In this document: in pieces, positions 726 to 43,809 of the stretch
Layout of the letters: each line of letters opens with the position of its first letter
Numbering within the stretch: position 1 is the first letter of the stretch
Position numbers and translations under genes: made by a program
The notes under the pieces: generated by a model
Seen by the model: the letters and a program-made list of their open reading frames with translations, nothing else
Told to the model about the DNA's origin: nothing
Databases searched by the model: none
Source: a virus
Lineage: Duplodnaviria > Caudoviricetes
Strand: one strand, 5' to 3'
Length of the DNA stretch: 44,400 nt
IMG/VR virus record: IMGVR_UViG_3300027851_000048
Coordinates: 1-44,400 of that record

Positions 726-1412
726 ATGAAACTGTTTTTCGCTGCCGTTCTTTTCTTCCTTTCAGCCTTTGCGGCGGCTCAAGTCGAGCAGTCGCCGCAG
801 GAAATCCACTTCGATTACCGCGTGAACATGCTGCAGGGCATGGCCGAGGGCGCCGGCTACGGCAAGACCGTGCTGATGGGTGACTCGATCGCGGAGGCGT
901 TTTTCTGGAACTCGACGGCGTGCGGGGCGCTGATCAACGCCGGATCAGGCGGTGCCAACACAGAAATGCTGCACGCCCGTGTCGCGCGGATATTCGACCT
1001 GACGCGCCCTGCTGTGGCCGTGGTGCCGATCGGGATCAACGACGCACACGAATGGACGGACCTTGCCGACTGGAAGCGGAAATACAACGGCATCGCCTAC
1101 CTGATGTTTCAGCGCGGCATCACGCCGGTGTTCGAAACGCCGCTGCCGGTGGAGCAGGGGAAGCCTCTCGGGGCCGACTACTTCGATCAGGCAGTGCTGC
1201 TCGAAATCATCGCGCACATCCGCGCCGTCGCACGCAACTACGGCGCCGTGCTCAATGACCAGTTCGCCACGTTCAGCGACGCCGCCGGCTATCTGCCGGC
1301 CGGCAGCACGCTCGACGGTGTGCATCCGACTGGCGCGCTCTACCGCGTGATCTACACACAGCGGCAGGGGGCGATTCGGCGGGCGTGGGCGAAGCGCGGG
1401 GTGAGCTGCTGA
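726..1412 (+). CDS. Secreted SGNH/GDSL hydrolase (esterase) with N-terminal signal peptide
   Basis: MKLFFAAVLFFLSAFAAA|Q signal peptide. SGNH blocks GDSI, NAGSGG, GIND and DGVHP are all present. The stop overlaps the holin start (TGATG). Confidence 0.85.
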   Translation: MKLFFAAVLFFLSAFAAAQVEQSPQEIHFDYRVNMLQGMAEGAGYGKTVLMGDSIAEAFFWNSTACGALINAGSGGANTEMLHARVARIFDLTRPAVAVVPIGINDAHEWTDLADWKRKYNGIAYLMFQRGITPVFETPLPVEQGKPLGADYFDQAVLLEIIAHIRAVARNYGAVLNDQFATFSDAAGYLPAGSTLDGVHPTGALYRVIYTQRQGAIRRAWAKRGVSC

Positions 1413-1720
1413 TGATCGACCCTCAACATCACGACTGGTGGATGACCACCATCCTGCTCGTCATCCTCGCCATGTGGGCGGGGTTCGTGAGCTACCTGCG
1501 CACGCTGGTCAAGGGGCAGGAATTCCGGTGGCTGTGGTTCGTCAGCCACATGTCGTCGAGCGCGCTGGCCGGGCTGATCACCGCGCTGCTCTGTGACCAG
1601 TACGACGTGACGATTCAATGGACAGGCATCTCGTGCGCGCTGGCCGGGCACATGTCCGCCGAGGCGGTCAAGGTGTTCGAAGATCGGCTGCGGAAAAAAG
1701 CGGAGGCGCTCGAAACATGA
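1412..1720 (+). CDS. Holin (LydA-like)
   Basis: About 102 aa with 2-3 hydrophobic segments and a basic C-terminus, directly upstream of the endolysin. Confidence 0.8.
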   Translation: MIDPQHHDWWMTTILLVILAMWAGFVSYLRTLVKGQEFRWLWFVSHMSSSALAGLITALLCDQYDVTIQWTGISCALAGHMSAEAVKVFEDRLRKKAEALET

Positions 1721-2121
1721 ACACAGGCATCGAAAAATTCGACGCGCGCAGCCGGCGCAACCTGGCCGGTGTGCATCCGGCTCTGGTCGCCGTAGTCGAG
1801 CGCGCCAGCGAGATCACCGCGGTGCCGTTCGTTGTCATCGAAGGCATGCGCACGAAGGCGCGGCAGGCCGAACTGGTCAAGGCCGGCGCGAGCCAGACGC
1901 TGCAGGGCCGTCACTTGCACGGCTTCGCGGTTGATCTGGCCGCGATCGCCGGCAATGAAATCCGCTGGGACTGGCCGCTGTATTTCAAGGTGGCCGATGC
2001 CATGCAGCGCGCCGCCGATGAACTCAACACGCCGGTCATCTGGGGTGGATCGTGGCGCAAGTTCAAGGACGGACCGCACTTCGAGCTGCCGAGACTGACC
2101 TACCCGGACCCGAAGCCGTGA
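1717..2121 (+). CDS. Endolysin, peptidase M15 family (L-Ala-D-Glu peptidase type)
   Basis: Motifs EGMRT..RQ, RHLHGFAVD and WGGSW..FKDGPHFEL. Confidence 0.9.
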   Translation: MNTGIEKFDARSRRNLAGVHPALVAVVERASEITAVPFVVIEGMRTKARQAELVKAGASQTLQGRHLHGFAVDLAAIAGNEIRWDWPLYFKVADAMQRAADELNTPVIWGGSWRKFKDGPHFELPRLTYPDPKP

Positions 2122-2306
2122 GCGCCGATGTGGTGACCATGTTTCCCGGCGGAGCCTTTTCGCGAGAGCAGATAGCGGCTGTCCAGCAATTCGAAAACCA
2201 GCTTGCTCAGGCGGTCGAAACAGCGAAGGGCACGCGGGTTCCGCAGGGCTTCATTGTTGCGCTGCTGCACGCTTTCGCCATGCGCGAGACACAGGATTTG
2301 ATGTGA
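2118..2306 (+). CDS. Hypothetical protein within the lysis cassette
   Basis: GTGA overlaps with both neighbours; 62 aa. Confidence 0.6.
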   Translation: MSADVVTMFPGGAFSREQIAAVQQFENQLAQAVETAKGTRVPQGFIVALLHAFAMRETQDLM

Positions 2307-2728
2307 TCGTCGGCACCTTCATCCGCGCGCTGCCCGGCTGGGTCATGTGGCTGGCGCTTGGTGCGCTGGTGGCGGTCTCGGCGGGCTGGGGCTGGGTCAA
2401 GGGCGCCGCCAGCGTGCAGCAGGACTGGGATGCCGAGCGCGCCGCACAGACCATCACCGTCCTGCGCGTACAGGCCGCCCAGGCTCAGGTCACCGAGCGC
2501 GTCGTCACGCAGTACGTCGACCGGGTGCGCGTCGTGCGCGAAGCGGCCGAAACCATCATTAAAGAGGTGCCCGTCCATGTCCCCGCGAAATGTGATCCTG
2601 ATGGCCGTCTGCCTGCTGGTTTCCGCTGGGTGCACGACGCCGGCGCCTGTAACGGTCGTTGCCCTGCCGAACCCGCCGCAGATCCTGATGGAGCCGCCAC
2701 CGCCGCGGCTCGAACAGATCCCCGGTGA
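2303..2728 (+). CDS. i-spanin (Rz-like)
   Basis: N-terminal TM helix, a VTERVVTQYVDRVRVV...IIKEVP coiled region and a C-terminal Cys. Confidence 0.8.
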   Translation: MIVGTFIRALPGWVMWLALGALVAVSAGWGWVKGAASVQQDWDAERAAQTITVLRVQAAQAQVTERVVTQYVDRVRVVREAAETIIKEVPVHVPAKCDPDGRLPAGFRWVHDAGACNGRCPAEPAADPDGAATAAARTDPR

Positions 2729-2876
2729 CCGCGACCAGCCCGTGACCGTCACCGCCGCCGCCAAGACCGTGGCCACGAACTACGGCACCTACCACCTGAT
2801 CGCCGAACGCCTGCGCGCCCTGCAACAGTGGGTACGCGAGCAGGCAGCCCTGGGCAATGCTGCCGGCAGTCCGTAA
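2577..2876 (+). CDS. o-spanin lipoprotein (Rz1-like), overlapping the i-spanin
   Basis: MSPRNVILMAVCLLVSAG-C lipobox and a Pro-rich mature region, in the +1 frame overlapping Rz. Confidence 0.8.
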   Translation: MSPRNVILMAVCLLVSAGCTTPAPVTVVALPNPPQILMEPPPPRLEQIPGDRDQPVTVTAAAKTVATNYGTYHLIAERLRALQQWVREQAALGNAAGSP

Positions 2877-3053
2877 AGCGCTTGCGTTCGCTGAGGTGCT
2901 GCGCCGAAGCGGCTTTCGATCGTTCGAGGCCCGCATCATCCTGATCCTCGCCGCAGCGTTATGGCGCGAACGCGGAAAAACGAAGCGCGTCCGCCGTGAC
3001 CGTGACGGCTGGCGACAGGTCGCCTCGATCGCCATGGAAAAGCCTGCCCGCCC

Positions 3054-3357
3054 GGAGTAGGTCGCGGCGTAGCTTTTCAGATCATCAGCCCGGAAACCCT
3101 TTACCAGCTTGACCAACATACTGCGCCATCATCGGTGTAACGCCGCTGGCCGATGCCGCTGCAAGCTGTTGATTTTCCACCCGCGTTCCTCTGAAACCGT
3201 GTCCGGTCGCTGCTTTGCTGCCGACCGTGAGCGGTTCGGCCGATTGTTCGGCACCTATCCCCACGCATCCGCACTTGCTGTTTTGGCGTAGGTTTTCGGC
3301 GTACCATCCGCGAAAGTTACGCCGGCACCCGTCGGCGCGCACCGGGAAACCTACGCC
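3054..3357. other. attP region: arm-type repeats, IHF site and a core resembling the mutS 5' end
   Basis: GGCGTA(G/A)NTTT repeats at 3066, 3285, 3313 (reverse) and 3347 (reverse), with degenerate copies at 3054 and 3298. An IHF consensus AATCAACAGCTTG lies on the minus strand at 3162-3174. The region is immediately upstream of the integrase. Confidence 0.8.
3085..3180 (-). other. Replacement N-terminus for host MutS (mini-ORF GTG-ENQQLAAASASGV-TPMMAQY)
   Basis: AGAGGA RBS, GTG at 3180, and TPMMAQY at 3138-3118 matching the conserved MutS N-terminal TPMMxQY. The frame diverges and stops after the motif. Confidence 0.8.
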
Positions 3358-3359
3358 AG

Positions 3360-4637
3360 ATGTTCGACGCCCGCGCCGCGAAACAACTTCAGCCCGGCAC
3401 GCACCTTACCATTGAGGGCTGCCCGGGGTTACGCCTGCAGGCCACGGCGCGCACGCGTGCGTGGACGTACCGGTACAAGAGCCCGGTCGACGGGCGCATG
3501 CGCCAGGTGAAGCTTGGCGAGTGGCCGGCGATGTCGTGCCCGGCGGCGATTGTGGCCTGGGAAGATATGCGCCGGGCGCGTGAGGCGGGCGATGATCCGG
3601 CGCTGGCCAGGCGTGCGACGCGCGCGCAGACGCGTGCAACCGTGGCCCGGGCGCGGAGTGATTCGGTGCTCACGGTGGGGCGGGTGGCTGAGGCGTACCT
3701 GGTGGGGCATGTGGAGCGCAACCGCAAGCCCAAGGGCGCGGCGGAGATCCGGCGCATGTTCGGCCAGATGCTGGAGCCGGACGCGGATCTGCCGGCGGCG
3801 ACTTACACCCGATCGCAGGCGTTTGCGCTGCTCGAGCGCTGGGCGCATTCGCCAGTGCAGGCCGGCAAGCTGCGTGCCGAGCTGGGCGCGGCGTGGGACT
3901 ACGCGCTCGATGCTGGCCAGCTGCCCGAGACTGCGCCGAACTGGTGGCGGCTGATTATGCGGGGGCGTCTGCGATCGCGCGGGAAGAAGATCGCCGGCGA
4001 AAGCCAGGGCACGATCAAGCGCGTACTCAAGGATGCCGAGGTGGCCATGCTGATCGCCTGGCTGCCGAACTTCACCCAGCTGCTCGACGACGCGCTCACG
4101 CTCTACCTCTGGACGGGGTGCCGCGGTGCCGAGATCATGGCCATCGAGGCGCACGAGGTGGCCGAAGAGGCCGACGGCTGGTGGTGGACGATACCGAAGG
4201 CCAAGACCAAGAACGCCCGGCACGAGAGCGCGAGCGACTTGCGGGTGCCGCTGGTGGGGCGCGCGCTGGCCGTGGTGAAGCGCCGCCTGGCGCGCTACCC
4301 GTCGGGCTACCTATTCCCGGCCAGTCGCGGCGCCGGCGGGCACACCGCGCAGAAGGTCATCCAGGAGAACGTGTATTACCACCAGCCGTACAGCAACGTG
4401 CGGCCCGAGGTGAAGCGGTCGCGCCTGCCGGTGACGCACTGGTCGCCTCACGACCTGCGCCGCACCGTGCGCACGGCGCTGGCCAGCATGGGGTGCCCTG
4501 ACTCGGTGGCTGAGGCGGTGTTGGGGCACATGCAGGCCGGCATCAAGGGGGTTTACAACCTGCACAGCTACGATCGGGAGCGGCGCGAGTGGCTCACGCG
4601 GCTTGATCAGCGGTGGTCGAGTCTTGCGCAGCCGTAG
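3360..4637 (+). CDS. int: Tyrosine integrase with N-terminal arm-binding (DUF4102-type) domain
   Basis: Catalytic R (TGCR), K (TKN), HDLRR, LGH and GVYN; N-terminal GLRL...W.YRY.SP.DGRMRQVKLGEWP. Confidence 0.95.
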   Translation: MFDARAAKQLQPGTHLTIEGCPGLRLQATARTRAWTYRYKSPVDGRMRQVKLGEWPAMSCPAAIVAWEDMRRAREAGDDPALARRATRAQTRATVARARSDSVLTVGRVAEAYLVGHVERNRKPKGAAEIRRMFGQMLEPDADLPAATYTRSQAFALLERWAHSPVQAGKLRAELGAAWDYALDAGQLPETAPNWWRLIMRGRLRSRGKKIAGESQGTIKRVLKDAEVAMLIAWLPNFTQLLDDALTLYLWTGCRGAEIMAIEAHEVAEEADGWWWTIPKAKTKNARHESASDLRVPLVGRALAVVKRRLARYPSGYLFPASRGAGGHTAQKVIQENVYYHQPYSNVRPEVKRSRLPVTHWSPHDLRRTVRTALASMGCPDSVAEAVLGHMQAGIKGVYNLHSYDRERREWLTRLDQRWSSLAQP

Positions 4638-4869
4638 CCGCGCCCCGCTTGCCCTTGCCCGCGCCGGTGTTCCTCGGTGGCGGCAGATCTGACACCGGCC
4701 GCGCTTCGGCCCATTCGATCACCTCGCGGTACAGCCAGCCGACCCGGTTGGCGGACAACAGCCGCGGCTTCGGGAAGTTCTTTTCGCGCACCATCTTCTG
4801 CACCGTGGCCTCGCTCAGCGAGACGTGGGCGGCGACGTCCGGCAGCGACAGGTAGATCGGTGTGCTCAT
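4594..4869 (-). CDS. AlpA-family excisionase / recombination directionality factor
   Basis: LSLPDVAAHVSLSEATVQKMVREKNFPKPRLLSANRVGW; convergent with int and overlapping it by 44 bp. Confidence 0.88.
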   Translation of the reverse strand: MSTPIYLSLPDVAAHVSLSEATVQKMVREKNFPKPRLLSANRVGWLYREVIEWAEARPVSDLPPPRNTGAGKGKRGAATAAQDSTTADQAA

Positions 4870-9494: not shown

Positions 9495-11239
9495 GCAGCC
9501 TCCCGCATCTGCCCCACCACGCCACCCTCAATCCAGTGCGCCCCGATCGTCTCCGGCAAGCCGCCCGGCAGCGTCTTGAGCGTGCCGAACACCAGCGCTG
9601 TGTCGATCTCGTCATCTGCCGCGAGCTGGTCGAGCCATTCGAGCGCATCGGCGCGGCCGGCCAAGTCCAGCACATCGAAGCGATCGAGCACCAGCAGGCG
9701 CAGGCCGGACAGATGGCTGACCGCCTCGGCGATCATTGCGTCGGCGCGCCACTTCTCGGACTCGCTGAGTAGCGCGTAGGGGCGACACAGGCTCTCCACG
9801 CGGTGGTAAGCGGCGCTTATCGACATGTCGCGCCCAATGTGGACTTGCATCCATTGCGCGCGCAGCGATGAGGTATCAAGCCGATCGTTGATCGGCTCCA
9901 GCGCCTCGGCCAGCATGTCGCCCGGGATGCCGTCCGGCGACAGCGCGTCGGCGATCTCCAGCCACGCAAGCACGTCGGCGTGATGGCGGGCAGCCTGTTC
10001 GATCACCCGGTCCTTCTGCGCCTCCTGCTCGGCCAGCGACTGGTATTTGGCGACATCGGTGCGCCACGCGTCGCGTGCCTCTGTCTTCTGCTGCACGTCC
10101 TCGCGCAGCTCGTCGAGGTTCGGCGCTTCGGCGTCATCGGGCGCGAGTTCCTTCAGCGCGGTTTCAGCGGCTTCGGCAGCCGCCAGATCGCGCCGCCCAT
10201 TGTTCACCGCGCTCTGCATCAGGTCGCGTGCGCGCTCCTTCTCCGGCAGCGTCGCCGCGGCGTCGGCGTCGAAACTGTATTCCGGCTCGACGTACTCAAT
10301 CAGCGCGCCATCAGCCGGCCTGTGTGTGAGCACGACCGCGCAGCACGGGCAGTTGTAGGTCGGCACCTTCTCGGGCTTGTGGCCAGCTTTCGCGCGGGTG
10401 TCCGCGACGACCTTCTGCCACTCAGCGAACTCGGCTTCGTCCTTGGCGAGCTTGGCGCGGATACGGTCGATGCGGCCGGCGCGCTCTTCAAGCTGGGCGC
10501 GCCGCTGTTCCTGCTCTTCGCGCGCTCGGGCGGCCGACTGCGCGGCACCCAGCGCCTGCTGCGCTGTGGACAGGGCCGCGTCGGCTTCCTTGAGCTTCGC
10601 GCGGGAGTTCTCCAGCAACTGCGGTGCGCGGCCGGCGTCATCGGGCAGCGCGGCCGGGCGCCAGCCGGCGGACTTTTCCTTGCCCCACGTCTCGCCACCG
10701 GTCACGGTTTTCCACGCGGCTTTTGCATCGCGCGCCTTGCCTTGGGCCTCTTTGCATGCGGCCTCGAAGCCGGCCTTGAGCAGCGGCATGACCAGCGCGA
10801 CGCGGGCGTCGTCAAAGCCTTTGTCGGCCAGCCGCTTCTTCACGGCTTCGCCGCTTGAGCTGAGGCCCATCAAGCCGAACAGGAACGCCCGGCGCTCGTC
10901 CGGCGACAGGCGAGCGAATCGCTGGGCGTCAAGCGCGTAGCTGATGGCGCCCTCTTCAAAGCAAGTACCCTTGCCGCTCGGCAGCGCGACAGCGTAGGCG
11001 CCGCCGTCTGATACGACCTCGACGAAGCCGGACTCAGCGCCCTCAGTCAGCAGTGCGCCATATTCCTTCTTCAGACTGACGCGCACCGTTTCACCGGTGA
11101 GCGCGTGGCGGACGGCTTCCTGCAGCGAAGACTTGCCTGCGGCGTTGGCGCCAGCGAACAGATTCACCGGGCGGGTCAGCGCGACATCAGCCGCGCGGAT
11201 GCCCAAGTAATTCTGGGCTGAGATTCGGGTGATTTTCAT
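9491..11239 (-). CDS. SMC/SbcC-like AAA ATPase
   Basis: Walker [10 protein letters not shown], long coiled coil with a CPCC Zn-hook, signature LSESE and Walker B LLVLDRFD. Confidence 0.88.
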
Positions 11240-12363
11240 GCTGCGAGTACCTCACGCTGTCCGGTGGAATTCATGGGGCTGACGACACCGGCTTGCTCCA
11301 TCTGCTCGATCAGACGCGCCGCGCGGTTGTAGCCAATCTGAAGATGGCGCTGAATGAGCGATATGGACGGGCGCCCAGTCTTCTTCACAACCTCAACCGC
11401 CTGGTCGTACAGCGGGTCAGGATCGCCGTCGTTTGCCGAACCTTCGGCGCGTTCAACGAGGTCGTCACGCTTCGGCACTTCGATGCCGCCGTGGGCCGCC
11501 GCCAGCGCCAAGAAGGCCTGCTCGATCTCGGCAGCCTCCAGCAGGAACTGCGCGTCGAAGTTCTCAATCTCGTCGTCGGCCGGCTGCTGCGACTCGGTGA
11601 GCACGTCGAGCATCTGAATCCGCTTCAGCTCCAGTTCGCTGCCAAGGATGAAGCTCATGCGGTCGCGGAATGTGAGGCCAAGGTGTTCGGCGCGCTTGCC
11701 CTGCGCGATGTGGTGCCGGATCTCTTCGGCGTCAAGGCTGTGCCGCGTGTAGCTGACTGCGGCCTTGCTCTCGGACGACGACACCAGCTTGCAATCGGTG
11801 TCGATCGTGAATTGCTCCGGCGCCTCGTCAGCGGCGAGCCAGGAGGTCATGGCACTCGCAGGCGTGATCTGCGTGTTCATCAGCGACACCGGCATGTTCT
11901 CCAGCGCCTCGCGCATGGCGTCGATTGCCTCCTCGGCGCGGTTCGCGCTGGCGGCAGCCACGATCAGTAGGCCGCGCTGGCGACAGATCCACGCCAGCGT
12001 CTGGCGCTTGCGTGTGAAGGCCAGCTCCAGCAGTTCGCGGGTGACCTGATCCTTGATCTCGCGCACCTCACGACGGCCGGGCTTGTAGCCTTGCTCCAGC
12101 TCAATGTCGGCGACTCGGATGTCGACGTGCTCCTGTATCACGGCAGCAGGCAGCAGCTTTTCCTCGACTTGGAAACACACGAGATAGCGCCCATGGACTT
12201 CGTGACACAGTTCGGCTTGGTCGCGTGGCGGCACAAAGCCGCTGGAGTCGATCTGCGACGGCGAACACGGCTGGAAGGTGCGGCGCGACAGCAGCTCGGC
12301 GGTCCCGGCTGCGTCCCACGGCCAGCCGGTCGGGAGGTGGTAGGCGATTGCGTTTCTGAACAT
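11236..12363 (-). CDS. rdgC: Recombination-associated protein RdgC fused to a C-terminal FtsK gamma domain
   Basis: RdgC motifs [11 protein letters not shown]...Q..S.GFVPP and EEKLLPA.VI. The C-terminus [11 protein letters not shown]...[28 protein letters not shown] is FtsK gamma. Confidence 0.9.
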
Positions 12364-12369
12364 GGCGGC

Positions 12370-13299
12370 TTACTCCAGATTCATCGCGCGCTGACCGCGA
12401 CCACGCGGCGCACTGGGCGGCTGTTCGCCACCCGCTTCGGCCAGCTCGCGCGCGCGGATCGCTGCCTCTTCTTCAGGCGTCGGAACCCAGTCGCCGGCCG
12501 ACTGCTGGACGGTGGCGGGCGGTACGCGGTTGGTGCTGCCCTGTTCGATCTGGCGCAGCTCGTTGTCCTGTCGGCGGTCCATGTCGGCCGGGCTTTCGGG
12601 CTTCTCAGGGGAGGGTTCCGCCGTTGTCGGGGCTGCGTCGCGCAAGGCATTCAGGTCGACCGAGAACCCGCCCCGGCCGTCCGGTGACGCTTCGAACGTG
12701 TCCTGGATATCCTCGACGGTCTGAAGACCCATGCCGAGTTCGGGTGCGTAGGCGCGCTGCCAGAAAGCCGCGCAGCGATACACGAACATCTGGTCGGGCA
12801 TCGTTTTCCACTTGCTGCCGTTCTTCGAATCCCAACCCTCGGCGCGCACCATGGCCCACGTCACCCAGATTCCGTCCAGACGCTCACCGGTTTCTCGTTC
12901 AATCGCCCAGGCGCGGCAGCCGTAGTCCGCTTCGCCTGGCTTGCCCTTCCATTCGTAGCGCAGCGAGCTGTATCGGCCGCTTGCGTTGATCGTCGCGATC
13001 AGGAACTTCGACGACCAACCCGGTGTGCCATGCACGATGTACAGGTTCTGCATGACCATGAGCGGGTTCGCGCCGATGCGCTGAGCCATGTCCATCGCGA
13101 TCATGCAGTTGGCTAGATTCCCCTGGTACTGCTTGGGCACGAGGTCGGACGAGGCAAAGGCCTTGCTCACGCGCTGGATCAACTCGAAGGCCTGCAGGTC
13201 GAAAAAGCCGGCGCGCACGGCCGGCAATGTGTTCTCGCGCGGCGCGGTCTGCTGGCTGCGCAGCGCGGTGACGCTTGTGTTGTTCGCGGGTGCGTTCAT
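12370..13299 (-). CDS. RecT/Bet-like ssDNA-annealing recombinase
   Basis: S.LVPKQYQG..ANC.IA.....R.G..P..VMQNLY.VHG.P.W and SKWKTMPDQM..YR.A.FW.R.YAPE; adjacent to the exonuclease. Confidence 0.8.
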   Translation of the reverse strand: MNAPANNTSVTALRSQQTAPRENTLPAVRAGFFDLQAFELIQRVSKAFASSDLVPKQYQGNLANCMIAMDMAQRIGANPLMVMQNLYIVHGTPGWSSKFLIATINASGRYSSLRYEWKGKPGEADYGCRAWAIERETGERLDGIWVTWAMVRAEGWDSKNGSKWKTMPDQMFVYRCAAFWQRAYAPELGMGLQTVEDIQDTFEASPDGRGGFSVDLNALRDAAPTTAEPSPEKPESPADMDRRQDNELRQIEQGSTNRVPPATVQQSAGDWVPTPEEEAAIRARELAEAGGEQPPSAPRGRGQRAMNLE

Positions 13300-13321
13300 G
13301 GTCTTGTTGTCCTCGTGTTGG

Positions 13322-14167
13322 TCAGTCGTGGTAGCGGCAGTGCGCGGCGTAGGCCGGGCAATACTTGTTGCTGCAGAGCATGCTTTTCGGGTTCGGCGGG
13401 AAGATCCCGTCGCGAAGCATTCGCGCGGCGATCTCGATCAGGCCGGGATGCTCTTCAGTGCCGAGAAGCGGCGTTTTCACGTCCGCGATCTCACCGGTAC
13501 CGCACGGCGTTTCCTTGGTCGTCTGCAGGCCGATGATTTCAGCGGGCGCCTCCATGCGCTCACCGCTGGCCTGCTCGGCCATCAGCGTGTAGATACCGAG
13601 CTGGAGGTGGTGTCCTTTGGTGACAGCCCGGCGGCTGCCGTCCGGCGCCTTTTCCGTCGCGCGGCCACCGGTCTTGATGTCGCTGATTCCGCGGCGTCCG
13701 TCTTCCAGCACACGGACGCGATCGGTCGTTCCAGTGACACGAACGACGCCGTGTTCGGTGGCGATGTCCAGCGCCTCGCATTCGAGCTCAACCGCCGAAT
13801 AGGTGCGGATCGGCGCAATCTCGTTGCAGTACCGCGTCGTAAGCTTGATGGCGAAGCTGTCGGCCTCGTTCGGCGACAGGTCTTCATCCCAGGCAACCTC
13901 GTATTCCGGGTGCGCGAGGTTGTCGCGTGCCGCGTCGACCGCGTCGGTGACACTGATCGACGAGCCGTCAATCAGGCGGGCCGCGTCAAATGCCGCGGTG
14001 CCGGCATGCACTGCAGTGCCGAGCGCGGCGGCGCCGGATGACGGGCTCCTCAGCCCGACAATGTTCTGCCAGTACCAACGGTGCCCGCAGTCGAACAGGG
14101 ATGGCCACGAGCTGGCGCGGATAGTTGCCAGCGGCTCGATGCCGTTGATGCGTTCGGGTGCATTCAT
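13322..14167 (-). CDS. PD-(D/E)XK exonuclease (Cas4/RecB-like, probable Fe-S cysteines)
   Basis: GTAVH, GTTD, DIKTG and QLGIY; one N-terminal Cys plus a C-terminal C...YC......C. Confidence 0.88.
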   Translation of the reverse strand: MNAPERINGIEPLATIRASSWPSLFDCGHRWYWQNIVGLRSPSSGAAALGTAVHAGTAAFDAARLIDGSSISVTDAVDAARDNLAHPEYEVAWDEDLSPNEADSFAIKLTTRYCNEIAPIRTYSAVELECEALDIATEHGVVRVTGTTDRVRVLEDGRRGISDIKTGGRATEKAPDGSRRAVTKGHHLQLGIYTLMAEQASGERMEAPAEIIGLQTTKETPCGTGEIADVKTPLLGTEEHPGLIEIAARMLRDGIFPPNPKSMLCSNKYCPAYAAHCRYHD

Positions 14168-14421
14168 CGAATAGCTCCAATCAGTTTCAACCGGCGCGAT
14201 GCCTGCCGGCGCTCTTCCCGCGCAATGCGCAGGGCTTCCAGATGCGCGACGTGTCTTGAGTGATCCGGGCAGATCGTCATTGCGTCGGCGCCGATCCACT
14301 CGTCAGCCGCCAGCGTTGTTCTTGACCCGAGCGCAGCCATCGCAGCGTGACGCTCGTCGAGCCAAGCGCGAACCACGCGCAGACGGGCCCGGAGTCGAGC
14401 AGCAGCGCGGCGCCTATTCAT
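14164..14421 (-). CDS. Hypothetical protein
   Basis: ATGA-coupled to the exonuclease. Confidence 0.55.
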   Translation of the reverse strand: MNRRRAAARLRARLRVVRAWLDERHAAMAALGSRTTLAADEWIGADAMTICPDHSRHVAHLEALRIAREERRQASRRLKLIGAIR

Positions 14422-27592: not shown

Positions 27593-28933
27593 ATGGGTTC
27601 TGCACTGGAAATCAAGCCGAATGTGGAGTGGTTGCGCAATCCGGACACCGGGCTGATTGTGGGGTTTCGGGATGAGCGGGGGGTGGAGCGAGTCAACGAC
27701 TTCGCTTCGGCGCTGCTTGCCTCTGGCGGGGTGGCTTACGGAAACCTCTCCGCTCTCGGTGGCGACAGCATCACGGAGCAGTGCCGCGGGCCGGGCACGG
27801 CAAATCCGCGGGTGCGTTCGAACTTCGGGTACTTCACCTACCTGAACGCTCGTCTTCGGGGCAGCCTCAAGATGGTGGCGAACTACGGCGTCAGCGGACA
27901 GACCATGACGACGATGCTTGACCGAATTCGGTCTGGCGACATCAACCTGGACGGCATCAAATACTTTTTCTGGATACCGTCCGGCAACGATATCAATCAA
28001 GGCGTCATCACCAATGCAGCGCAACTTCGCGAGGTGATCACCAACATCGTGATTGAGCTGCGCAAGCGCGTTCCGGTCGTCATTGCCGGCAACATCATGC
28101 CGCGCACCGTGACGAACTCGGCGGGATTTGATACCCCAGCCGAGCGCGCGCTGGTGGCGCAAGGGAATATGCACCTTTCAGACCTTTCTTCCTTGGTGCC
28201 GGGATTCCGCTCTGTCGACCTATTCACTCGCCTTGTTGAGCCGTCCACCGGCGCGCCGCTGACGGGTGTGATGTGGGACACGAACCCGGTGCATCCGGGG
28301 GCCACTGGCGCAGAGTTGATTGCGGAATGCTTCTACGAAGGTGCGTCGGACATCCTCCCGAACGGCGGCTACCAGATCACCAACAACAACTATGGCGGCG
28401 AGTTGGTTGCCGTTGCTCCGGCAAGCTGGGCGATCTCCGAAGCTGTTGGAACCTGGACTACGAAAACGCTGACACACGGCGAACTCGGAAGCGACGGGAA
28501 GTCGGACTGGTCGAAGTTGATTCTGGCTACACCATCGCTGCCGGATACCACGTATCAACTGCTGGTCGACACCATTGCAATCGGGGCATCAACATTCGCC
28601 GTCGGCGACACCGTACAAGGCGCGGTCGAGTACGAGATTGTGTCTGCCGTCGATATGAAGGCTGTGAATATGCAACTCACTATCAACGGGGCCGGACAGA
28701 ACGTCGACACGATGGGTGAATTCGCTCTTCCCGCTACCGGGAGCGGTCTGAATGTATCCACAACGCGCCCGCTGAATCGCCGGCTTTTCACGACGCCCGA
28801 GTACGTCATTCCGTCCGGCACGACGGCCATGCAGCCGAAATTGCGATTCATGGCAAACAGCGCAAGTTCTGCGCTTACCGTGCTCATCAAGAATCGCCCG
28901 TCGCTGAAGAACCTGTCGGCTTTGCGCCTGTAA
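27593..28933 (+). CDS. SGNH hydrolase-domain protein with beta-sandwich C-terminus (moron or virion appendage)
   Basis: GDSIT, NYGVSGQT, GNDIN and D..PVHP; more A/T-ending codons than its neighbours; followed by a terminator. Confidence 0.8.
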   Translation: MGSALEIKPNVEWLRNPDTGLIVGFRDERGVERVNDFASALLASGGVAYGNLSALGGDSITEQCRGPGTANPRVRSNFGYFTYLNARLRGSLKMVANYGVSGQTMTTMLDRIRSGDINLDGIKYFFWIPSGNDINQGVITNAAQLREVITNIVIELRKRVPVVIAGNIMPRTVTNSAGFDTPAERALVAQGNMHLSDLSSLVPGFRSVDLFTRLVEPSTGAPLTGVMWDTNPVHPGATGAELIAECFYEGASDILPNGGYQITNNNYGGELVAVAPASWAISEAVGTWTTKTLTHGELGSDGKSDWSKLILATPSLPDTTYQLLVDTIAIGASTFAVGDTVQGAVEYEIVSAVDMKAVNMQLTINGAGQNVDTMGEFALPATGSGLNVSTTRPLNRRLFTTPEYVIPSGTTAMQPKLRFMANSASSALTVLIKNRPSLKNLSALRL

Positions 28934-35705: not shown

Positions 35706-37349
35706 ATGGCCACAATCCCAACCTACCCGGCGGGCGGCGCCGTCAATGCTGCACCCCTGCCGAACGCGCGACAGTCCTCCATCGCCTCACCCGCACTGTT
35801 CGCGGGTCAGCGGCTCGCCGAGCAGGCCGGAGAAGGGCTTGCGATTGGGGGTGCGGTGCTGGGCAACATCCAGCTCCGGATGCAGGAGCGCGCGGACATG
35901 GATGCCGTTGTGCGCGCCGAATCCGAGCTGATCAACAAGGTCACGGACTTCTCGCTCAAGGCGCGCGAGCGGCGCGGTCAGAACGCATACGGGCTGACGG
36001 ACGAGGCGACGAAGTGGTTCGAGGAAGAATCGCGCCGCATGGCCGACGGTCTGGGCAACGACACGCAGCGGCGCGCCTTCCAGAACATCGCGCTGCGCAG
36101 GCAGTCGTCGTTCCGCACCGGCGTGGCCGAACTGGAGCTGGGTGAGCGCAACAAGTCGCTGTCCGAGAGCATGCAGGCGGCGCGCGAGGCGGGCGTGAGC
36201 GCGGTCGCAGCGGACCCGCGCGTGGCGGATGCCGAGCGCGATCGGCTGATGAAGAACATCGACTCGGAGGCTGCGCTGCGCGGCTGGACGCCGGAGATCA
36301 CTGCCCGCGCGCGCACCGAGAACCTGACCAAGCTGCACACCGCCGCAATCGGCAATCTGGTCGAGCAGAACCCCGAGGATGCCAAGGCCTACTACTACAA
36401 GCACCGCGAAGAGATCGACGGCGCCGTGCAGCAGAAGATCACGAAGTTGCTCGACACCGCAGGGCGGGAAGCGAAGGTGCAGGGCGTGGCCGACGAGATC
36501 GAGCGCATGGGCCTGGATGATGAGGCCGCGATCAAGTTCATTCAGGAGAACCACGCCGGAGACGACGAGAAGGCCATCAAGCAGGAATGGCGCACGCGCC
36601 GCGCTGACCGCAACGCGGCCGACATGATGCAAAAGAAGGAAGTCGAGAGCGAGGCGTGGAAGGTCATCGCCGGGGGCGGTGGTCAGAAGCAGATCCCGGT
36701 CAAGCTCTGGAACGAACTTGACGGGCAGACGCAGACGCAGATCAAGGACTACCTCTACCAGCGCGCCAAGCGCGCCGAGTCCGATGCCCAGGGCAAGGCC
36801 ATGAAGACCGACATCACGGCCTATGCGCTGCTGCGCGACGCGGTCACGGCCAACCCGGAGATGGAGACCGGCAAGTTGCTGGCGATGCCGGAGTTCTCGC
36901 GCCTGTCCAGTGGCGACCAGCAGGAGGTGCTCAAGTTTCGGGACTCGCTGCGCAAGGACGAGAAGAAGATCACCGAGGTCCGCACTGCCGACAACCAGAT
37001 CACGAACACGGTGGGCCTGATGGAACTGAAGGGCGAGGCTGCGGCGGCGTTCAAGATCGGCGCGCTGCGCGAAATCGATGCCGAGGCTGCCGCACGGGGC
37101 AAGGCGCTCGGCGCCGACGAGCGGCAGAAGATCATCGACCGCATGCTGGTCGAAGGTGACGTCAATGGCGCATGGCCCGGAGGGGGTCGGCGCTGGTACG
37201 AGGTCGCCGGCACGCCGCAGGCCGAAGAGTTTCGCGCCGAAGTGCCGGACAGCGAGCGGGGCAAGATCGTCGAGGCGCTGCGCCGCGCGAACAAGGAAGT
37301 CACCGAAGAAGCCGTGCAATCCCTCTACCGGAAGAAGGTGGGACTTTGA
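35706..37349 (+). CDS. Ejection protein (T7 gp15-like position)
   Basis: Helical 547-aa protein between the gp14-like and giant genes. Confidence 0.7.
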   Translation: MATIPTYPAGGAVNAAPLPNARQSSIASPALFAGQRLAEQAGEGLAIGGAVLGNIQLRMQERADMDAVVRAESELINKVTDFSLKARERRGQNAYGLTDEATKWFEEESRRMADGLGNDTQRRAFQNIALRRQSSFRTGVAELELGERNKSLSESMQAAREAGVSAVAADPRVADAERDRLMKNIDSEAALRGWTPEITARARTENLTKLHTAAIGNLVEQNPEDAKAYYYKHREEIDGAVQQKITKLLDTAGREAKVQGVADEIERMGLDDEAAIKFIQENHAGDDEKAIKQEWRTRRADRNAADMMQKKEVESEAWKVIAGGGGQKQIPVKLWNELDGQTQTQIKDYLYQRAKRAESDAQGKAMKTDITAYALLRDAVTANPEMETGKLLAMPEFSRLSSGDQQEVLKFRDSLRKDEKKITEVRTADNQITNTVGLMELKGEAAAAFKIGALREIDAEAAARGKALGADERQKIIDRMLVEGDVNGAWPGGGRRWYEVAGTPQAEEFRAEVPDSERGKIVEALRRANKEVTEEAVQSLYRKKVGL

Positions 37350-40300
37350 ACGAATACGATGACCTGCTCGCCGCGGGCGATGCGCGCGGGAGTCTGACCG
37401 CTGCCGCCGGCCACAACCCCGACGAATACGCCCGCGCCCGGCGCGCATCCGAACAGACCGGCCTGCCGCTGGCTGTGAGCTTGCGCAACCTGCCGGCTGT
37501 CGAGCAGAAAGTGAAGCTCAACGAGTACGACCAGATGATGCAGACGGCGCCCGCTGTCGCGCGCCAGATGCGCAACCCTGACGTGGCCGGCGTGGCGCAG
37601 GACGACATTCCGCGTCTGGCGCAGATCGAGCAGTTGATGCGGGATGACTTCATGCGCCCGCAGTCAAGCACCGACGTCGTGAACAACATCATCAAGCCGC
37701 GGCCGTTTGTGTTCGGGCCGATCGCCAAACCGCCCGCGACAGCCGCCAACATCGCTACCGGTCTGGCCGCTGACGCCGGGCAGACGTTGAACCGGTTCCG
37801 CCAAGGCGTGCGCCTGCGGTTCGCCGACGCGCTTGGGCTGGACGACATGCGCGACGAGCAGATCCGTCAGCGGCGTGAGATGGACTTCGCCAGCGAGGTC
37901 ACGACACCCGAGTTCGACAGCAGCACCGCGTCGGGCATCTACAGCGGCGCACAGTCGCTGATCCGTGCCGTGCCGGGCATCGCTGCCGGTGTGGCAACGC
38001 GCAACCCCTACGCCGGTCTTGCTGTCATCGGCGCACAGACTGAGACGGATGCGTATGCCAAGTATCGCGAACGCGGCGCAACCCCAGGTCAGGCAACTAT
38101 TGGGTCGGTCGGCGAAGCGGCGGTCGAGGTCGGTACCGAGATGCTGCCGATGGGCTTCCTCGTGAATCGACTGGGCAAGGCCGGTGCTGGTGAGTTCCTG
38201 TCCGGCCTCTTGCTGCGCGAGATCCCCGGCGAGCAGATCGCAACGCTTGTGCAGGACGCCATCGACACCGCCGTCGCAAACCCCGGAAAGACGTGGGCCG
38301 AGTACCGCGCCGAGCGACCAGACGCCGCCTATCAGACGCTGGTGGCGACCGTCACGATGGCCGGCGCCATGGGTGGCATCAACGTCGTCGCGAACCGGCT
38401 GGCCGGCGAGCAGGAACAGGCCGGCACCACGGATCAAGCGGCCAAGGCCATGCAGCGCCTATTCGAGGTCGCATCCGAATCCACGCTGCGCACGCGCGAG
38501 CCGGCGACCTTCGCCCAGATGGTGCAGGCCGCCGCCGAGGAAACCGGGCAGGCGCCGACCGAAGTGTTTGTCGATGGCCGCATGCTGGCTGACGCCTTCG
38601 CGCAGTCGGGCATCGATCCGGCGCAGGCCATGCCGGCCATCGCGGGCCAACTGCAGGACGCCATTGCGCAGGGTCACGACGTGGCGATCCCCATCGGCGA
38701 GTTGGCCGCGGCGCTCCCGGGTACGGGCATGGAGCAGTCGCTGCTGGAGAACATCCGCTTCCAGGCCGACGGCCCGACCGTTGCCGAGGCGCGTGAGTTC
38801 GAGTCGAAGGCTGGCGAGATGCTGCGCACCGAAGCCGATCGGATCATCGGCGAGCAGCAGGATGAGACGGCAGCCGGTGCACAGGCGCAGACCGTGTTCG
38901 ATGGCGTGCTCGGCCAGTTGAACGCCGCGAATCGCTTCACGCCGGACGTGAATCAGGCCTACGCCACGCTGGTGCGCGACTACTTCACCACGATGGCCGC
39001 GCGCATGGGCACGACGCCGGATGCGCTGTACGAGCGGTTCCCGCTGTCGGTGTCGGCGCAAGGGGTGGGGGGCGGCATCGCGCTGGATCAGGGTGATGTG
39101 CCGGTGACCGGTGGCGCGGGTCTTGATGCCGTTCGCCAGCAGTGGCAGAGCCAAGGCATCGACTTCGCAATCTCGGAATCGCCGGATCGAATCACGGTTT
39201 CCAAGATCGTTGTGCCGGAAGGCTCGCGCGGGCAGGGCGCCGGAACACGCGCCATGCAGCAGCTGATCGATCAGGCTGATGCGGCCGGCAAGGCCATCGT
39301 GCTGTCGCCGTCGGCTGACTTCGGCGGCGACAAGAAACGGCTCACCGCGTTCTACAAGAAGCTGGGTTTCAAGGAAAACAAAGGTCGCAACCGGGCGTTT
39401 TCGACGACAGAGAGCATGTATCGCGAGGCGCCCGGGAAGCCGCTATATCAGTCGCCCACATCCGCCCCCGTGTCCATCGAGGTCGATGGCGTGATCCGCC
39501 CGGCCACGAACAGCAACGGGCAGCGCATCGCACAGACCGAGGAAGGGCTGCGCAACTTCTGGCGCTGGTTCGGCGACAGCAAGGTGGTCGATGCCGACGG
39601 GCGGCCGTTGGTGGTGTATCACGGGACGGGGGAGAAGTTTTCCAGGATTAACCTCAAGAAAGGCGCGCAAGGCCTTTTCTGGTTCGCGTCTGACAGGTCC
39701 GCGATTGAGGCTGGGGAAGTCGGAGCCTCCGGCAATGGCTTCATCATGGAGCTATACGCCAAGATCGAAAACCCGGCCGACTGGAAACAGTACGACCAGC
39801 TCATGCTTGACGAGTTTAAGTCACGCGGGCTTGACGGCGCGGTACTGCCGGAAAAAGACGGGGCGATGACCGGGTTCATCATAAACAGGCCCACTCAGAT
39901 CAAATCCGCCACCGGCAACCGCGGCACGTTCGACCCAGCCGACGCAAGCATCCTGAAACAGGGCGCTCGCGGCGCCTTCGACCCGTCGTCACTGAACATC
40001 GCGCTGCTGGAGAACGCCGACCTCTCGACATTCCTGCACGAAGCCGGTCACGCCTTCCTCGAAATGACGGCCACGATGGCCGCGCAGCCGGAAGCACCCG
40101 AACAGGTGCAGCAGGACATGCGCACGCTGCTGGACTGGATGGGCTTTAGAGGCGGCGCTGCCGAATGGCTGGCGCAACCGGTCGATGTGCGACGCGCCGG
40201 CCACGAGAAGTTCGCCGAGTCGTTCGAGCAGTACCTGTTCGAAGGCACGGCGCCGACGATCGAACTGCAGGCGCTGTTCTCCCGCTTCCGGGCGTGGCTG

Positions 40301-43300
40301 AAATCCGTCTATCGCAGCCTGGAGCAGTTCCTGCGTGGCGCGCAGAACGCCGGCCTCTCGCCCGAGGTGCGCGCGGTGATGGACCGCATGATCGCGACCG
40401 ACGAGGCCATCGCCGAGACGCAGAAGGCGCGCGCAATGGTGCCGCTTTTCAAGACCATCGAGGACGCGCAGGCGGCCGGCATGAGTGCCGAGGAGTTCGA
40501 CGAGTACGCGCGCGGCGCACTCAACGCACAGGAATCCGCGAAGGACGCGCTGCAGTTGCGCGGCATGCGCGACATGAAGTGGCTGTCGAACGCGCGCAGC
40601 AAGGTGATGAAGGCGCTGCAGAAGGGCGCGGCCGAGCAGCGCAAAGCCGTGCGTGCTGAGGTCGAGGCCGAGGTTGCGCGCGAACCGGTCTATGTGGCCC
40701 GTGCGTTCATTGCACGCGGCGAGTTGCCGGAGCGCGACCTGTCCAACGCCGAACGGCGCACGATTGACGCGGCGGCCGGCATGTCGACCAAGCTCTCACT
40801 GCCGGCGCTGAAAGAGATGTACGGCGAGGATCCTGCCGCGCCGTGGCGATACCTGCCGGTCGGCAAGAACGGGCTCGCGGCGACCGAGGGCATGCACCCG
40901 GACGAGGTGGCGCGCATCGTCAATATCGTGCTGGGCGTGCCGCGCTATCAGTCGGGCGACCAGATGGTTCGCGAGTTGCTGGCCGCACCTGCGATGCGCG
41001 AGGTCATCGAGGAGCGCACCGACCAGACGATGCTCGAGCGCTACGGCGACATCACGGGCCCCGAGGCGCTCGCGCGTGCCGCGGACGAGGCGGTGCATAG
41101 CGAAGCGCGGGCGAAGATGATCTCCACCGAACTGGCTGCCATCCGGGGCATGATGCCGCAGCGCAATCTGCTGCTGCGCGCGATCCGCCAAGCCGTCGAT
41201 GCGGCGATTGCCTCACGCCGTGTGCGCGACATGAAGCCGGCGCAATTCGCGGCAGCCGAGGCGCGAGCCGGGCGCGATGCCGAGAAGTCGCTGGCGGCCG
41301 GCGACACCGAACGGGCTGCGCAGGCCAAGCAGGACCAGTTGTTCAACAACGTGGCCACGAAGGCCGCGTATGAAGCGCAGGCTGAGATCGAAAGCGCTGT
41401 GCGCTACTTCAACCGGATGGTCAGCCCGCGCATCCGCAAGAGCATCGACCCCGACTACGCCGACCAGATCGACGCCATGCTGGAGCGCTTCGACTTGCGC
41501 AAGGGTGTCACGCTGCGCGCCATTGAGCGGCGCAAGAGCCTGGCCGCGTGGATCGAGTCAATGCGCGAGCAGGGCATCGAGCCGCAGCTGGACGAGCGGC
41601 TGGAGAACGAGGCGTTCCGCAAGTCCTACAAGGACATGTCGATGGAGGAGTTGCGCGGCCTCGTGGATGCGGTCAAGCAGATCGAGCATCTGGGTCGGCT
41701 GAAATCGAAGTTGCTGACGGCGCGCGATCAACGCGACTTCCGCGCTGCGGTCGATGCAGCAGCGACCAGCATCCGGGACAACGCGCGCCAGACGCTGCCT
41801 GACCGGGTGGAGTCGAACACCTTCGGCGCCAAGTTCGGCAAGGGCGTGCGCCAGTTTTTCGCGATGCACCGCAAGCTCGCGAGCGTCGTGCGCGAGATGG
41901 ACGGCATCAAGGACGGTGGCGTGCTCTGGGATCTGTTCGTGCGCCCGATGAACGAGCGCGGCGACGCCGAATCAGTCATGCCGAGCAGGTCACGATGGCG
42001 CTGTTCGACCTGTACAAGCCCATCCTTGAGGCTGGTCGCCTGCGCCAGAAGATGGTCGTACCCGGCACCGGCATCAGCCTGTCGCGCGAAGGGCGCCTGG
42101 CGATCGCTCTCAACTGGGGCAACGAGACAAACCGGCGCCGGGTGATGGAGGGTGACGGCTGGAACCAGTACCAGGCCGAACGCATCCTGTCGTCACTCAC
42201 GCGCGAGGAATGGCAGTTCGTCGAAGGCGTGTGGGAATACATCGACAGCTTCTGGCCGCAGATCGCCGAGAAGGAACGTCGCGTCACCGGCAGCGCGCCT
42301 GAGAAGGTCGCAGCGGCCCCGTTCTCCGTGACGCTTGCCGACGGCACCACGATCAACCTGCGCGGCGGCTACTACCCGATCAAGTACGACGCCGACCGTT
42401 CTACGCGCAGCATGGCCGACGAAGCGGCCGAGGTGGTCAAGCAGCAACTGCAGGGCGGGTACGCGCGCGCCACCACACGCAGGGGTCACACGAAGGCGCG
42501 AACAGAATCAGTGAATCGGCCGGTGCGCAAGGACTTGAACGTCATCACCGACCATCTGGCGCAGGTCACGCATGACCTGGCGTGGCACGAGTGGTTGATC
42601 GACGCGAACCGGCTGATCAACGCCGCACCGATCGACACGGCCATGCGCGAGCACTACGGCCCCGAGTTCGTGAAGCTGATGCGCGACGCAATCCGCGACA
42701 TCGCCGTCGGCGAGCCGCCTGCACAGAACGTGTTCGAACGCGGCATCAACCATCTGCGTGTGGGTGCCACCATCGCCGGACTGGGCTGGAACCTGATGAC
42801 CTCGCTCATGCAGCCACTGGGTCTCACGCAGTCGATCGTGCGGATCGGGGCCAAGCACGTCGGGCGCGGGATGATGGACCTGTTCGGTGAGCCGGCGAAG
42901 ATGAACCAGAAGGTCGCGTGGGTTTATGAACAGTCGGACTTTATGCGCCTGCGCGGCAAGACGATGCAGCGCGAGATCAACGAAATCCGCAACACGATAT
43001 CCGCGTCCGGCTTCGACTGGCTGGCCGACACGCTGCCCAAGACGGAAGCCGCTCGACGCACTGTTGCCGACAGCTACTTCATGTTCATCGCGTGGGCGCA
43101 GCGCACCGTCGATCTGCCGACCTGGCTGGGTGCGTACCACAAGGCACTGGACGGTGGAGAGCAGCACGACCGCGCAGTGTCGCTGGCCGACCAGGCGGTG
43201 GTTGATTCGCAGGGCGGCGGCATGGTGAAAGACTTGGCCGGCATCCAGCGCGGCAGTCCGATGTTGAAGCTCTGGACGAACTTCTACTCATTCTTCAATA

Positions 43301-43809
43301 CGACCTACAACCTGAGCATCGAGTCGGCAAAGCGCACCGACTTCTCGCAGCCGTCGGACGTGGCGCGGCTCGCGATGGATTACCTGCTGCTCTACACCGT
43401 GCCGACCGTGATCATCACCCTGATGAAGACCGCACTCACCGGCGATGACGATGACTGGGAGCCGGAAAAGCTGGCCGACAAGCTTGCGCGCGAGCAACTG
43501 AACTCCGTGTTCGGCACCGTCGTGGGCGCGCGCGAATTGGCTGCAGCGTTTCAGGGTTACACCGGCTACAGCGGCCCAGCGGGCACGCGCTTCTTCGCCG
43601 AGTTCGCGCGACTGGGCAAGCAGCTTGAACAGGGCGAGCCTGACGGCGCGTTCTTCAAGGCGCTGAACAACTCGGCCGGTGTGCTGCTGCACTACCCGTC
43701 GGGCGCGGTCAATCGCGCGGTGTCGGGTGTCATGGCAATCAGCGAAGGCGAGGTCGAGGGCGTGGGCATGCTGACCGCTCCGCTGTTCGGGCCACCGAGG
43801 AAGCAGTGA
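37346..43809 (+). CDS. Giant polyvalent ejection protein (gp16 position; GNAT, ART-like and zincin domains), interrupted by a 1-nt frameshift near 41981
   Basis: TTG start overlapping the previous stop. GNAT RGQGAGT...FYKKLGF; ART-like WFGDSKVVD..G.PLVVYHGT...QIKSATGN.GTFD; zincin STFLHEAGH. Two ORFs join as ESVM[R]EQVTMALF if one base is restored, giving about 2154 aa. Confidence 0.82.

Follow-up and report, generated by a model that had tools for sequence, protein, structure and literature searches.

A probable Methyloversatilis phage with an attP that matches the TPMMxQY codons of host mutS and carries a predicted in-frame replacement start

Why should a phage carry, next to its integrase gene, a short frame that reads like the beginning of a bacterial mismatch-repair protein? 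The stretch analyzed here (positions 1 to 44,400 of IMG/VR record IMGVR_UViG_3300027851_000048, hereafter the window) raises this question through a minus-strand mini-frame encoding TPMMAQY, which the initial annotation interpreted as a replacement start for host mutS within attP. Re-reading of the sequence confirmed the mini-frame, its AGAGGA and GTG, the arm repeats and the IHF consensus. On the minus strand, AGAGGA (3192-3187) is followed after 6 bases by GTG (3180-3178), the codons ENQQLAAASASGV, TPMMAQY (3138-3118), 10 unrelated residues and a stop codon at 3087-3085, giving a peptide of 31 aa. The region comprises the following features:

3066-3078, plus strand: putative arm-type repeat on the lysis side, destined for attL (position and conservation)
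3085-3180, minus strand: 31-codon mini-frame, made up of a 14-codon replacement MutS start (3180-3139), the core and a dead-end tail
3118-3139, minus strand: att core of 22 bp, a T plus the TPMMAQY codons, common to host mutS; the attR contig of sequencing run X8 departs from the window at 3118, and the attL contigs of runs X8 and X6 at 3139
3125-3131, minus strand: predicted 7-bp strand-exchange (overlap) region, TGATGGC, its final two bases being the first two of the Ala/Gln codon; obtained by intersecting identical runs over 18 attL/attR pairs and partly shaped by the search patterns
3162-3174, minus strand: IHF consensus site, located 36 bases upstream of the Thr codon and reading N-Q-Q-L as codons (consensus match and conservation)
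3187-3192, minus strand: predicted Shine-Dalgarno-like AGAGGA, 6 bases 5' of GTG, read from the sequence and with no listed change in the compared relatives
3285-3297, 3313-3323 and 3347-3357, strand unassigned: three putative arm-type repeats before the integrase start, destined for attR (position and conservation)

The region contains the elements of a lambda-type attP, with an arm-binding integrase, arm repeats on both sides, an IHF site and a core with an overlap of about 7 bp, all of them sequence features for which binding is predicted. IHF recognizes the consensus WATCAANNNNTTR, which matches once in the entire window, at 3162-3174 (0.17 matches expected; at least one match in 15 of 100 shuffles); taken alone, this single match is weak evidence. 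The arm repeats are of the TACGCC type, with 5 of the 23 window copies of TACGCC falling within 3050-3360, and align with repeats of related elements; a shuffle figure for them is circular, because the pattern was derived from the window itself. By-eye inspection for dyad symmetry around the overlap was not convincing. Both the general layout and the 7-bp overlap agree with the account of lambda-type sites in PMC8371274. The integrase gene starts 220 bases from the core and diverges from the mini-frame, the dead-end tail of which is present in the attP form only. The absence of a mutS gene in the window, together with a 126-bp terminal repeat, indicates that the window represents the circular, non-integrated form.

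Family scans of the 60 open frames of the window identified repressor/Cro and replication genes, as well as the following modules:

1385-2876, plus strand: lysis cassette bordering attP, with holin, M15 endolysin and a spanin-like pair (family scans; spanin label from layout)
3360-4637, plus strand: tyrosine integrase of 425 aa with arm-binding domain (PF00589, PF13356; phrog_1)
4594-4869, minus strand: AlpA-family gene convergent with the integrase gene, a likely excision factor by inferred function (PF05930, E 2.2e-08)
12370-14299, minus strand: RecT-like annealing protein and PD-(D/E)XK exonuclease (phrog_561, PF12705, phrog_69)
22979-44399, plus strand: terminase, portal/head-tail, capsid, tail tube and internal virion genes of BcepC6B/BPP-1 type (family scans)

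A giant gene for a polyvalent internal virion protein, carrying LPD22, GNAT and ART-PolyVal domains, occupies two plus-strand frames (37172-42145 and 41995-43809), both matching phrog_9880. Near the frameshift that splits it, at about 41,990, 78 of 80 relatives are open and the other 2 end too soon to tell, and the window copy may therefore be misassembled or defective at this point. The genome also encodes an RdgC fused to a C-terminal FtsK-gamma domain (11236-12363, minus strand) and two plus-strand GDSL/SGNH esterase-like genes, one after the tail fibre (684-1412) and the other after the head-tail gene (27593-28933).

Direct evidence on the integration site was obtained by comparing contigs from 8 of 24 listed sequencing runs with the window, with 30 host letters available per junction. 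In run X8, an 8.7-kb contig tracks window positions 3650 to 3118 with 17 differences over 533 bases and then reads LGFKRQHPDL in the frame of the core, constituting an attR, while a 10.8-kb contig tracks positions 3010-3139 before running into host letters that read NGVPQIDPS, constituting an attL. Run X6 provides a second attL, the host side of which reads MASTDLS behind an ATG. An orphaned host mutS start is thus present at attL in both runs, like those of uninterrupted relatives, and by eye the attL letters of X8 and X6 resemble the starts found in genomes G426/G427/G428 and in G423/G425/G430. The phages with observed junctions are about 96-98% identical to the window phage, and the window attP equals the X8 attR-side arm, the core and the attL-side arm, with no extra bases. 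Contigs of runs X7 and X17 present the attP form. No junction was detected among 8 listed pieces (of 9) from X1, the possible source run of the window; X2 yielded no piece across the core, and the pieces from X11 do not bridge the core under a 31-letter rule. Searches with exact 20- and 19-base phage-arm patterns returned the window's own contig as the only real match; 11 metagenome matches and 1 viral match were dissimilar to the window and were discarded as chance. Among the listed runs, no RNA run held a good share of the window, with four possible at a share of 0.07-0.09.

These contigs also revealed variability beside attP. The slot between the lysis genes and attP (window 2998-3057) varies among phages: X7 is longer by 1084 bases at 3046/3057, and divergence sets in at 2998, 3010 or 3044 in contigs of X2, X4, X8, X11 and X17. 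One X4 contig matches 3120-3493, and its 14 letters beyond 3120 are unlike both MutS and the window's left arm, perhaps representing another attP arm.

Relatives of the integrase point to the same site. Among 23 GTDB integrase loci, 20 have a divergent MutS frame of at least 851 residues that starts at TPMMxQY, 210-258 bases upstream; of the remaining three, one lacks upstream sequence, and the other two (48% identity) use a tRNA gene and a different gene as targets. Sixteen of 31 viral integrase loci have more than 50 upstream bases, and 10 of these run into MutS, 3 present attP, 1 ends at the motif and 2 are too short. In the host family, which contains Accumulibacter, a search of 401 genomes gave 10 strong integrase matches, all 10 fused to MutS. 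Four of the 8 phage records with an integrase at E <= 1e-30 were examined; YO122_3 continues into MutS, the core is present in RS-AB1 and Aval, and KS9 lacks it. The initial annotation had proposed integration into the TPMMxQY codons of mutS behind an in-frame phage-borne start, and had looked to junctions or integrase relatives at other sites as counter-evidence. Both junctions of the near-identical phages run at these codons, with MutS in frame, and most integrase relatives are fused to mutS, which bears out the proposal.

Relatives with other targets are 48-58% identical to the window integrase and comprise KS9 and two genomic loci. At one of the latter (L020:3700-4000), the target is a tRNA-Gly gene by eye, and both this locus and KS9 (L137:1-267), which has a different core, retain the arm repeats and the IHF site. 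At the other (L021:3560-4000, Polaromonas), a 48%-identical integrase occupies the 5' end of a different protein-coding gene, which by eye resembles a dehydrogenase gene, at ATGATG and with arm repeats kept, possibly a case of retargeting with start replacement.

Host assignment started from the best match of the integrase, at 67% identity in genome G116, the genus of which is represented by the 21 genomes searched. Short perfect matches to the window in this genus sit in CRISPR arrays. A spacer search of 5 genus genomes against window bases 1-40,000 found matching spacers in 3 of them: four in G428 (33/33, 33/33, 32/32 and 31/31), five in G412 (33/33, 26/26, 29/31, 29/32 and 30/32) and three in G423 (36/36, 31/34 and 29/32). 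A 30-base match in G390 lies outside any CRISPR array and was not counted. In addition, MutS continues with LGFKR(Q/R)xP behind the motif in each of the 21 genus genomes, and the X8 junction likewise reads LGFKR. The suhB gene adjacent to mutS shares 90-94% identity with Methyloversatilis records, with the next named genera at 76% or below. Together, spacers, junction letters and suhB identity indicate that the host is very likely Methyloversatilis. Within this one host genus, anti-phage spacers occur in arrays of four different repeat types (L106, L107, L108 and L164). Besides its canonical mutS, genome G428 also presents a second MutS_I match (L121) in a 968-aa open frame.

To locate the crossover, we drew on 29 genomes with mutS-fused integrases. 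The partner attL was found in 18 of them (13 on the same contig as the integrase, 5 on another), was not found in 8 and was not sought in 3; where it lies on the integrase contig, the elements span 11-89 kb. Candidate attL matches without arm repeats (L158, L179 and others) were dropped as chance. With the first base of the Thr codon taken as position 1, attL and attR agree throughout positions 7-13 in each of the 18 pairs, a stretch corresponding to window 3131-3125. The attL search patterns demanded ATGATG, which makes positions 7-11 identical by construction and leaves the information in the borders of the identical run and in positions 12-13; the first identical position is 7 in one pair and 6 in eight pairs, and the last is 13 in four pairs. 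A common identical stretch over positions 7-13 matches the 7-bp overlap of lambda-type sites (PMC8371274) and points to this stretch as the crossover region. One assembly, G265, contains attL, attR and a precise attP of a single element (L145, L140 and L149, the last counted as attP and not as attL), a sign that the culture contained the excised circle.

Positions 12-13 form the beginning of a variable codon behind Met-Met, which encodes Gln or Ala, and supply its first two bases. Among the 21 genomes of the host genus, this codon specifies Gln in 16, Ala in 4 and Val in the remaining one; the window carries the Ala allele, as those 4 Methyloversatilis genomes do. Ala bases are likewise present in X4, X6 and X11, and Gln bases in X7, X8 and X17. 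On the host side, X8 is of Gln type and X6 is closest to the Ala type by eye, a resemblance that is not decisive. Hosts with Ala or Ser at this codon have identical bases in attL in 5 of 5 cases, under a pattern allowing four options. It is likely that the two bases of the overlap within this codon have to match the host allele for integration to proceed.

Conservation of the replacement start was assessed on 47 arms, a set that includes the window and consists of related, not independent, sequences. The mutS frame is open for at least 12 codons in 47 of 47 arms, compared with 31 and 30 for the other frames, and an in-frame ATG or GTG precedes the first stop in 46 arms, versus 6 in each other frame. 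The distance between replacement start and core varies, suggesting that starts were gained more than once under selection for retaining MutS. A simple scan found no clear Shine-Dalgarno in most of the 47 arms. At the corresponding distance from the core, 28 of 47 arms hold an IHF site with at most one mismatch, compared with 3 of 6204 background positions, and the N-Q-x-L that recurs in replacement starts (NQQL in the window) is this site read as codons. Its retention at the tRNA-targeting locus and in KS9 indicates that the site belongs to the recombination layout. Two changes, at 3153 and 3156, were read by hand in the replacement start of near-identical phages, and both alter a residue; the encoded peptide is loosely constrained. 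Behind the core, attP forms vary in how long their tails are and in what these encode, making a function for the 31-aa peptide unlikely.

The reading that we favor, and consider probable, is that this locus is the attP of a temperate phage, that near-identical phages are joined to mutS on both sides with the phage GTG in frame, that the crossover likely takes place within about 7 bases (3125-3131), and that full-length MutS is predicted in the lysogen and exact mutS after excision. Int would bind the arm repeats and the core, IHF would bend the arm at 3162-3174, and the AlpA-like protein would direct excision. In the lysogen, the first 9 to 16 host residues of MutS would be replaced by 14 phage-coded ones, translated from the AGAGGA/GTG start, and mutS would be transcribed from phage DNA, with a promoter predicted somewhere in the 220-bp arm. 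The most likely purpose of this arrangement is a safe, widely conserved landing site at little cost to the host, rather than control of its mutation rate; the site would be widely conserved because two Met codons cannot wobble. The phage is accordingly likely to leave mismatch repair intact instead of switching mutation on.

An in-frame fusion is nonetheless compatible with altered expression. Integration may move mutS from a host promoter to a phage promoter of other strength or timing, changing mutation or recombination rates in lysogens, an outcome that fits the attP anatomy and that we hold as a tentative, less probable reading. In 4 of 4 Ala-type genomes, and in 5 further ones, a gap of about 25 bases separates suhB from the start of mutS on the same strand, a spacing that suggests co-transcription, likely broken by the insertion, and in G116 suhB remains at attL. 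Chu et al. (mBio 8:e02045-16, PMC5296598) put forward such rewiring, as a proposal only, for precisely excising elements. Against it, the near-universal in-frame start among the arms points to selection for keeping MutS, and a promoter/terminator scan of 2870-3420 was blank, with no sigma-70-like promoter located. A more elaborate version, which we regard as doubtful, combines two ideas: that a single MutS residue acts as a key to lysogeny, the Ala and Gln attP alleles deciding the host species and perhaps converting a mismatched codon, and that insertion detaches mutS from the suhB transcript, leaving a phage promoter to determine how fast the host mutates.

The initial annotation went further and envisaged a mutator switch, in which imprecise excision removes extra bases and leaves a frameshifted mutS. 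Excision of a phage capable of lytic growth mostly kills the cell, which already speaks against such a role. There is precedent at the same motif in Vibrio splendidus 12B01, where a 2-bp scar is left and the two additional bases are found in the excised circle; rare variants are lost from contigs, which would make an infrequent scar invisible in them. However, the scar was seen only in that one Vibrio, being absent in the three other excising strains covered by the same source (E. coli 536, P. putida F1 and the B. multivorans CF2 prophage; PMC5296598). In the present material, the window attP is in register with the X8 arms and core without extra bases, the attP in G265 is precise, both junctions of a near-identical phage are in register with uninterrupted host alleles, and MutS_I matches have no internal stop in any of the 21 genus genomes (in G430 the match is split over two contigs). 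The switch is not supported by this material and is very unlikely.

MutS limits recombination between diverged DNA, and the presence of RecT-like and exonuclease genes in the window had led to the suggestion that mutS is targeted to relax anti-recombination on their behalf; a related idea is that the 31-aa attP peptide interferes with MutS. Both are extremely unlikely. MutS is predicted to be in frame before and after excision, leaving help for RecT with no mechanism unless expression changes, and the integration module is found in elements of as little as 11 and as much as 89 kb. As for the peptide, its tails differ among attP forms and both changes in the replacement start alter a residue. 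That the TPMM motif is a chance match or a relic and that the phage integrates elsewhere is next to inconceivable: three relatives do use other targets, but the direct junctions at the core refute the idea for the near-identical phages.

Integration at this motif has been described before. Chu et al. reported mobile elements in the HTPMMQQ motif of mutS, including prophages (B. multivorans CF2), and two strains of Methyloversatilis universalis whose orphan start was confirmed appear in their Table S2 (PMC5296598). The window phage shares with these elements the motif, an integrase within 300 bp of mutS, a predicted element-borne in-frame start and an orphaned host start; it differs in being a free circular phage genome of BcepC6B/BPP-1 type, in the lack of a scar and in its Ala allele. 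The SpyCI elements at Streptococcus pyogenes mutL, described in the same source, likewise occupy the 5' end of a mismatch-repair gene but silence mutL when integrated, whereas the window phage is predicted to restore an in-frame mutS with a start that the element supplies. Published work already covers the class, its motif, members that are prophages, and the genus. The words IHF, overlap and orientation are missing from the main text of Chu et al., which likewise does not give the IHF site, the point of crossover or the host-matched alleles; Fig. S4b of that paper could be relevant to the point of crossover. In later literature, only Chu et al. was found on insertion within mutS, in a search whose coverage leaves subscription journals outside. 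The consulted portion of the VarioGold paper (PMC9658991) does not mention mutS, the corresponding portions of PMC13540745 and PMC2647930 mention it in other contexts, and no Methyloversatilis phage paper stood out among the titles listed.

Among known phages, Ralstonia phages RS-AB1 and YO122_3 and Acidovorax phage Aval have integrases 56-60% identical to that of the window, the same arm layout and a TPMM core, which in YO122_3 continues into MutS; they differ in their hosts, and their examined stretches carry no mutS or att annotation. Burkholderia phage KS9 shares a 58% identical integrase and the IHF site, without the mutS core. Burkholderia phages BcepC6B and KL4 and Bordetella phage BPP-1 resemble the window phage in size and virion genes, with capsids 57-67% identical (BcepC6B 66%, BPP-1 57%), but are not among the 8 phage records with its integrase, indicating that their integration module differs. 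The suggestion that a full virion-forming phage resides in mutS brings no novelty, given that prophages are named by Chu et al. and that RS-AB1 and Aval carry the core, and the split internal virion gene calls for caution in describing the window phage as virion-forming.

The window phage therefore represents a clean further example of the class described in 2017, with an assigned host and with both junctions seen in near-identical phages. The mapped crossover would explain the use of this site across the Betaproteobacteria, through two Met codons that allow no wobble, and the occurrence of host-matched alleles in the attP core. Methyloversatilis, as a harmless and culturable genus, offers a setting for the question that Chu et al. 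raise (PMC5296598), namely whether a swap of the mutS promoter alters mutation rate.
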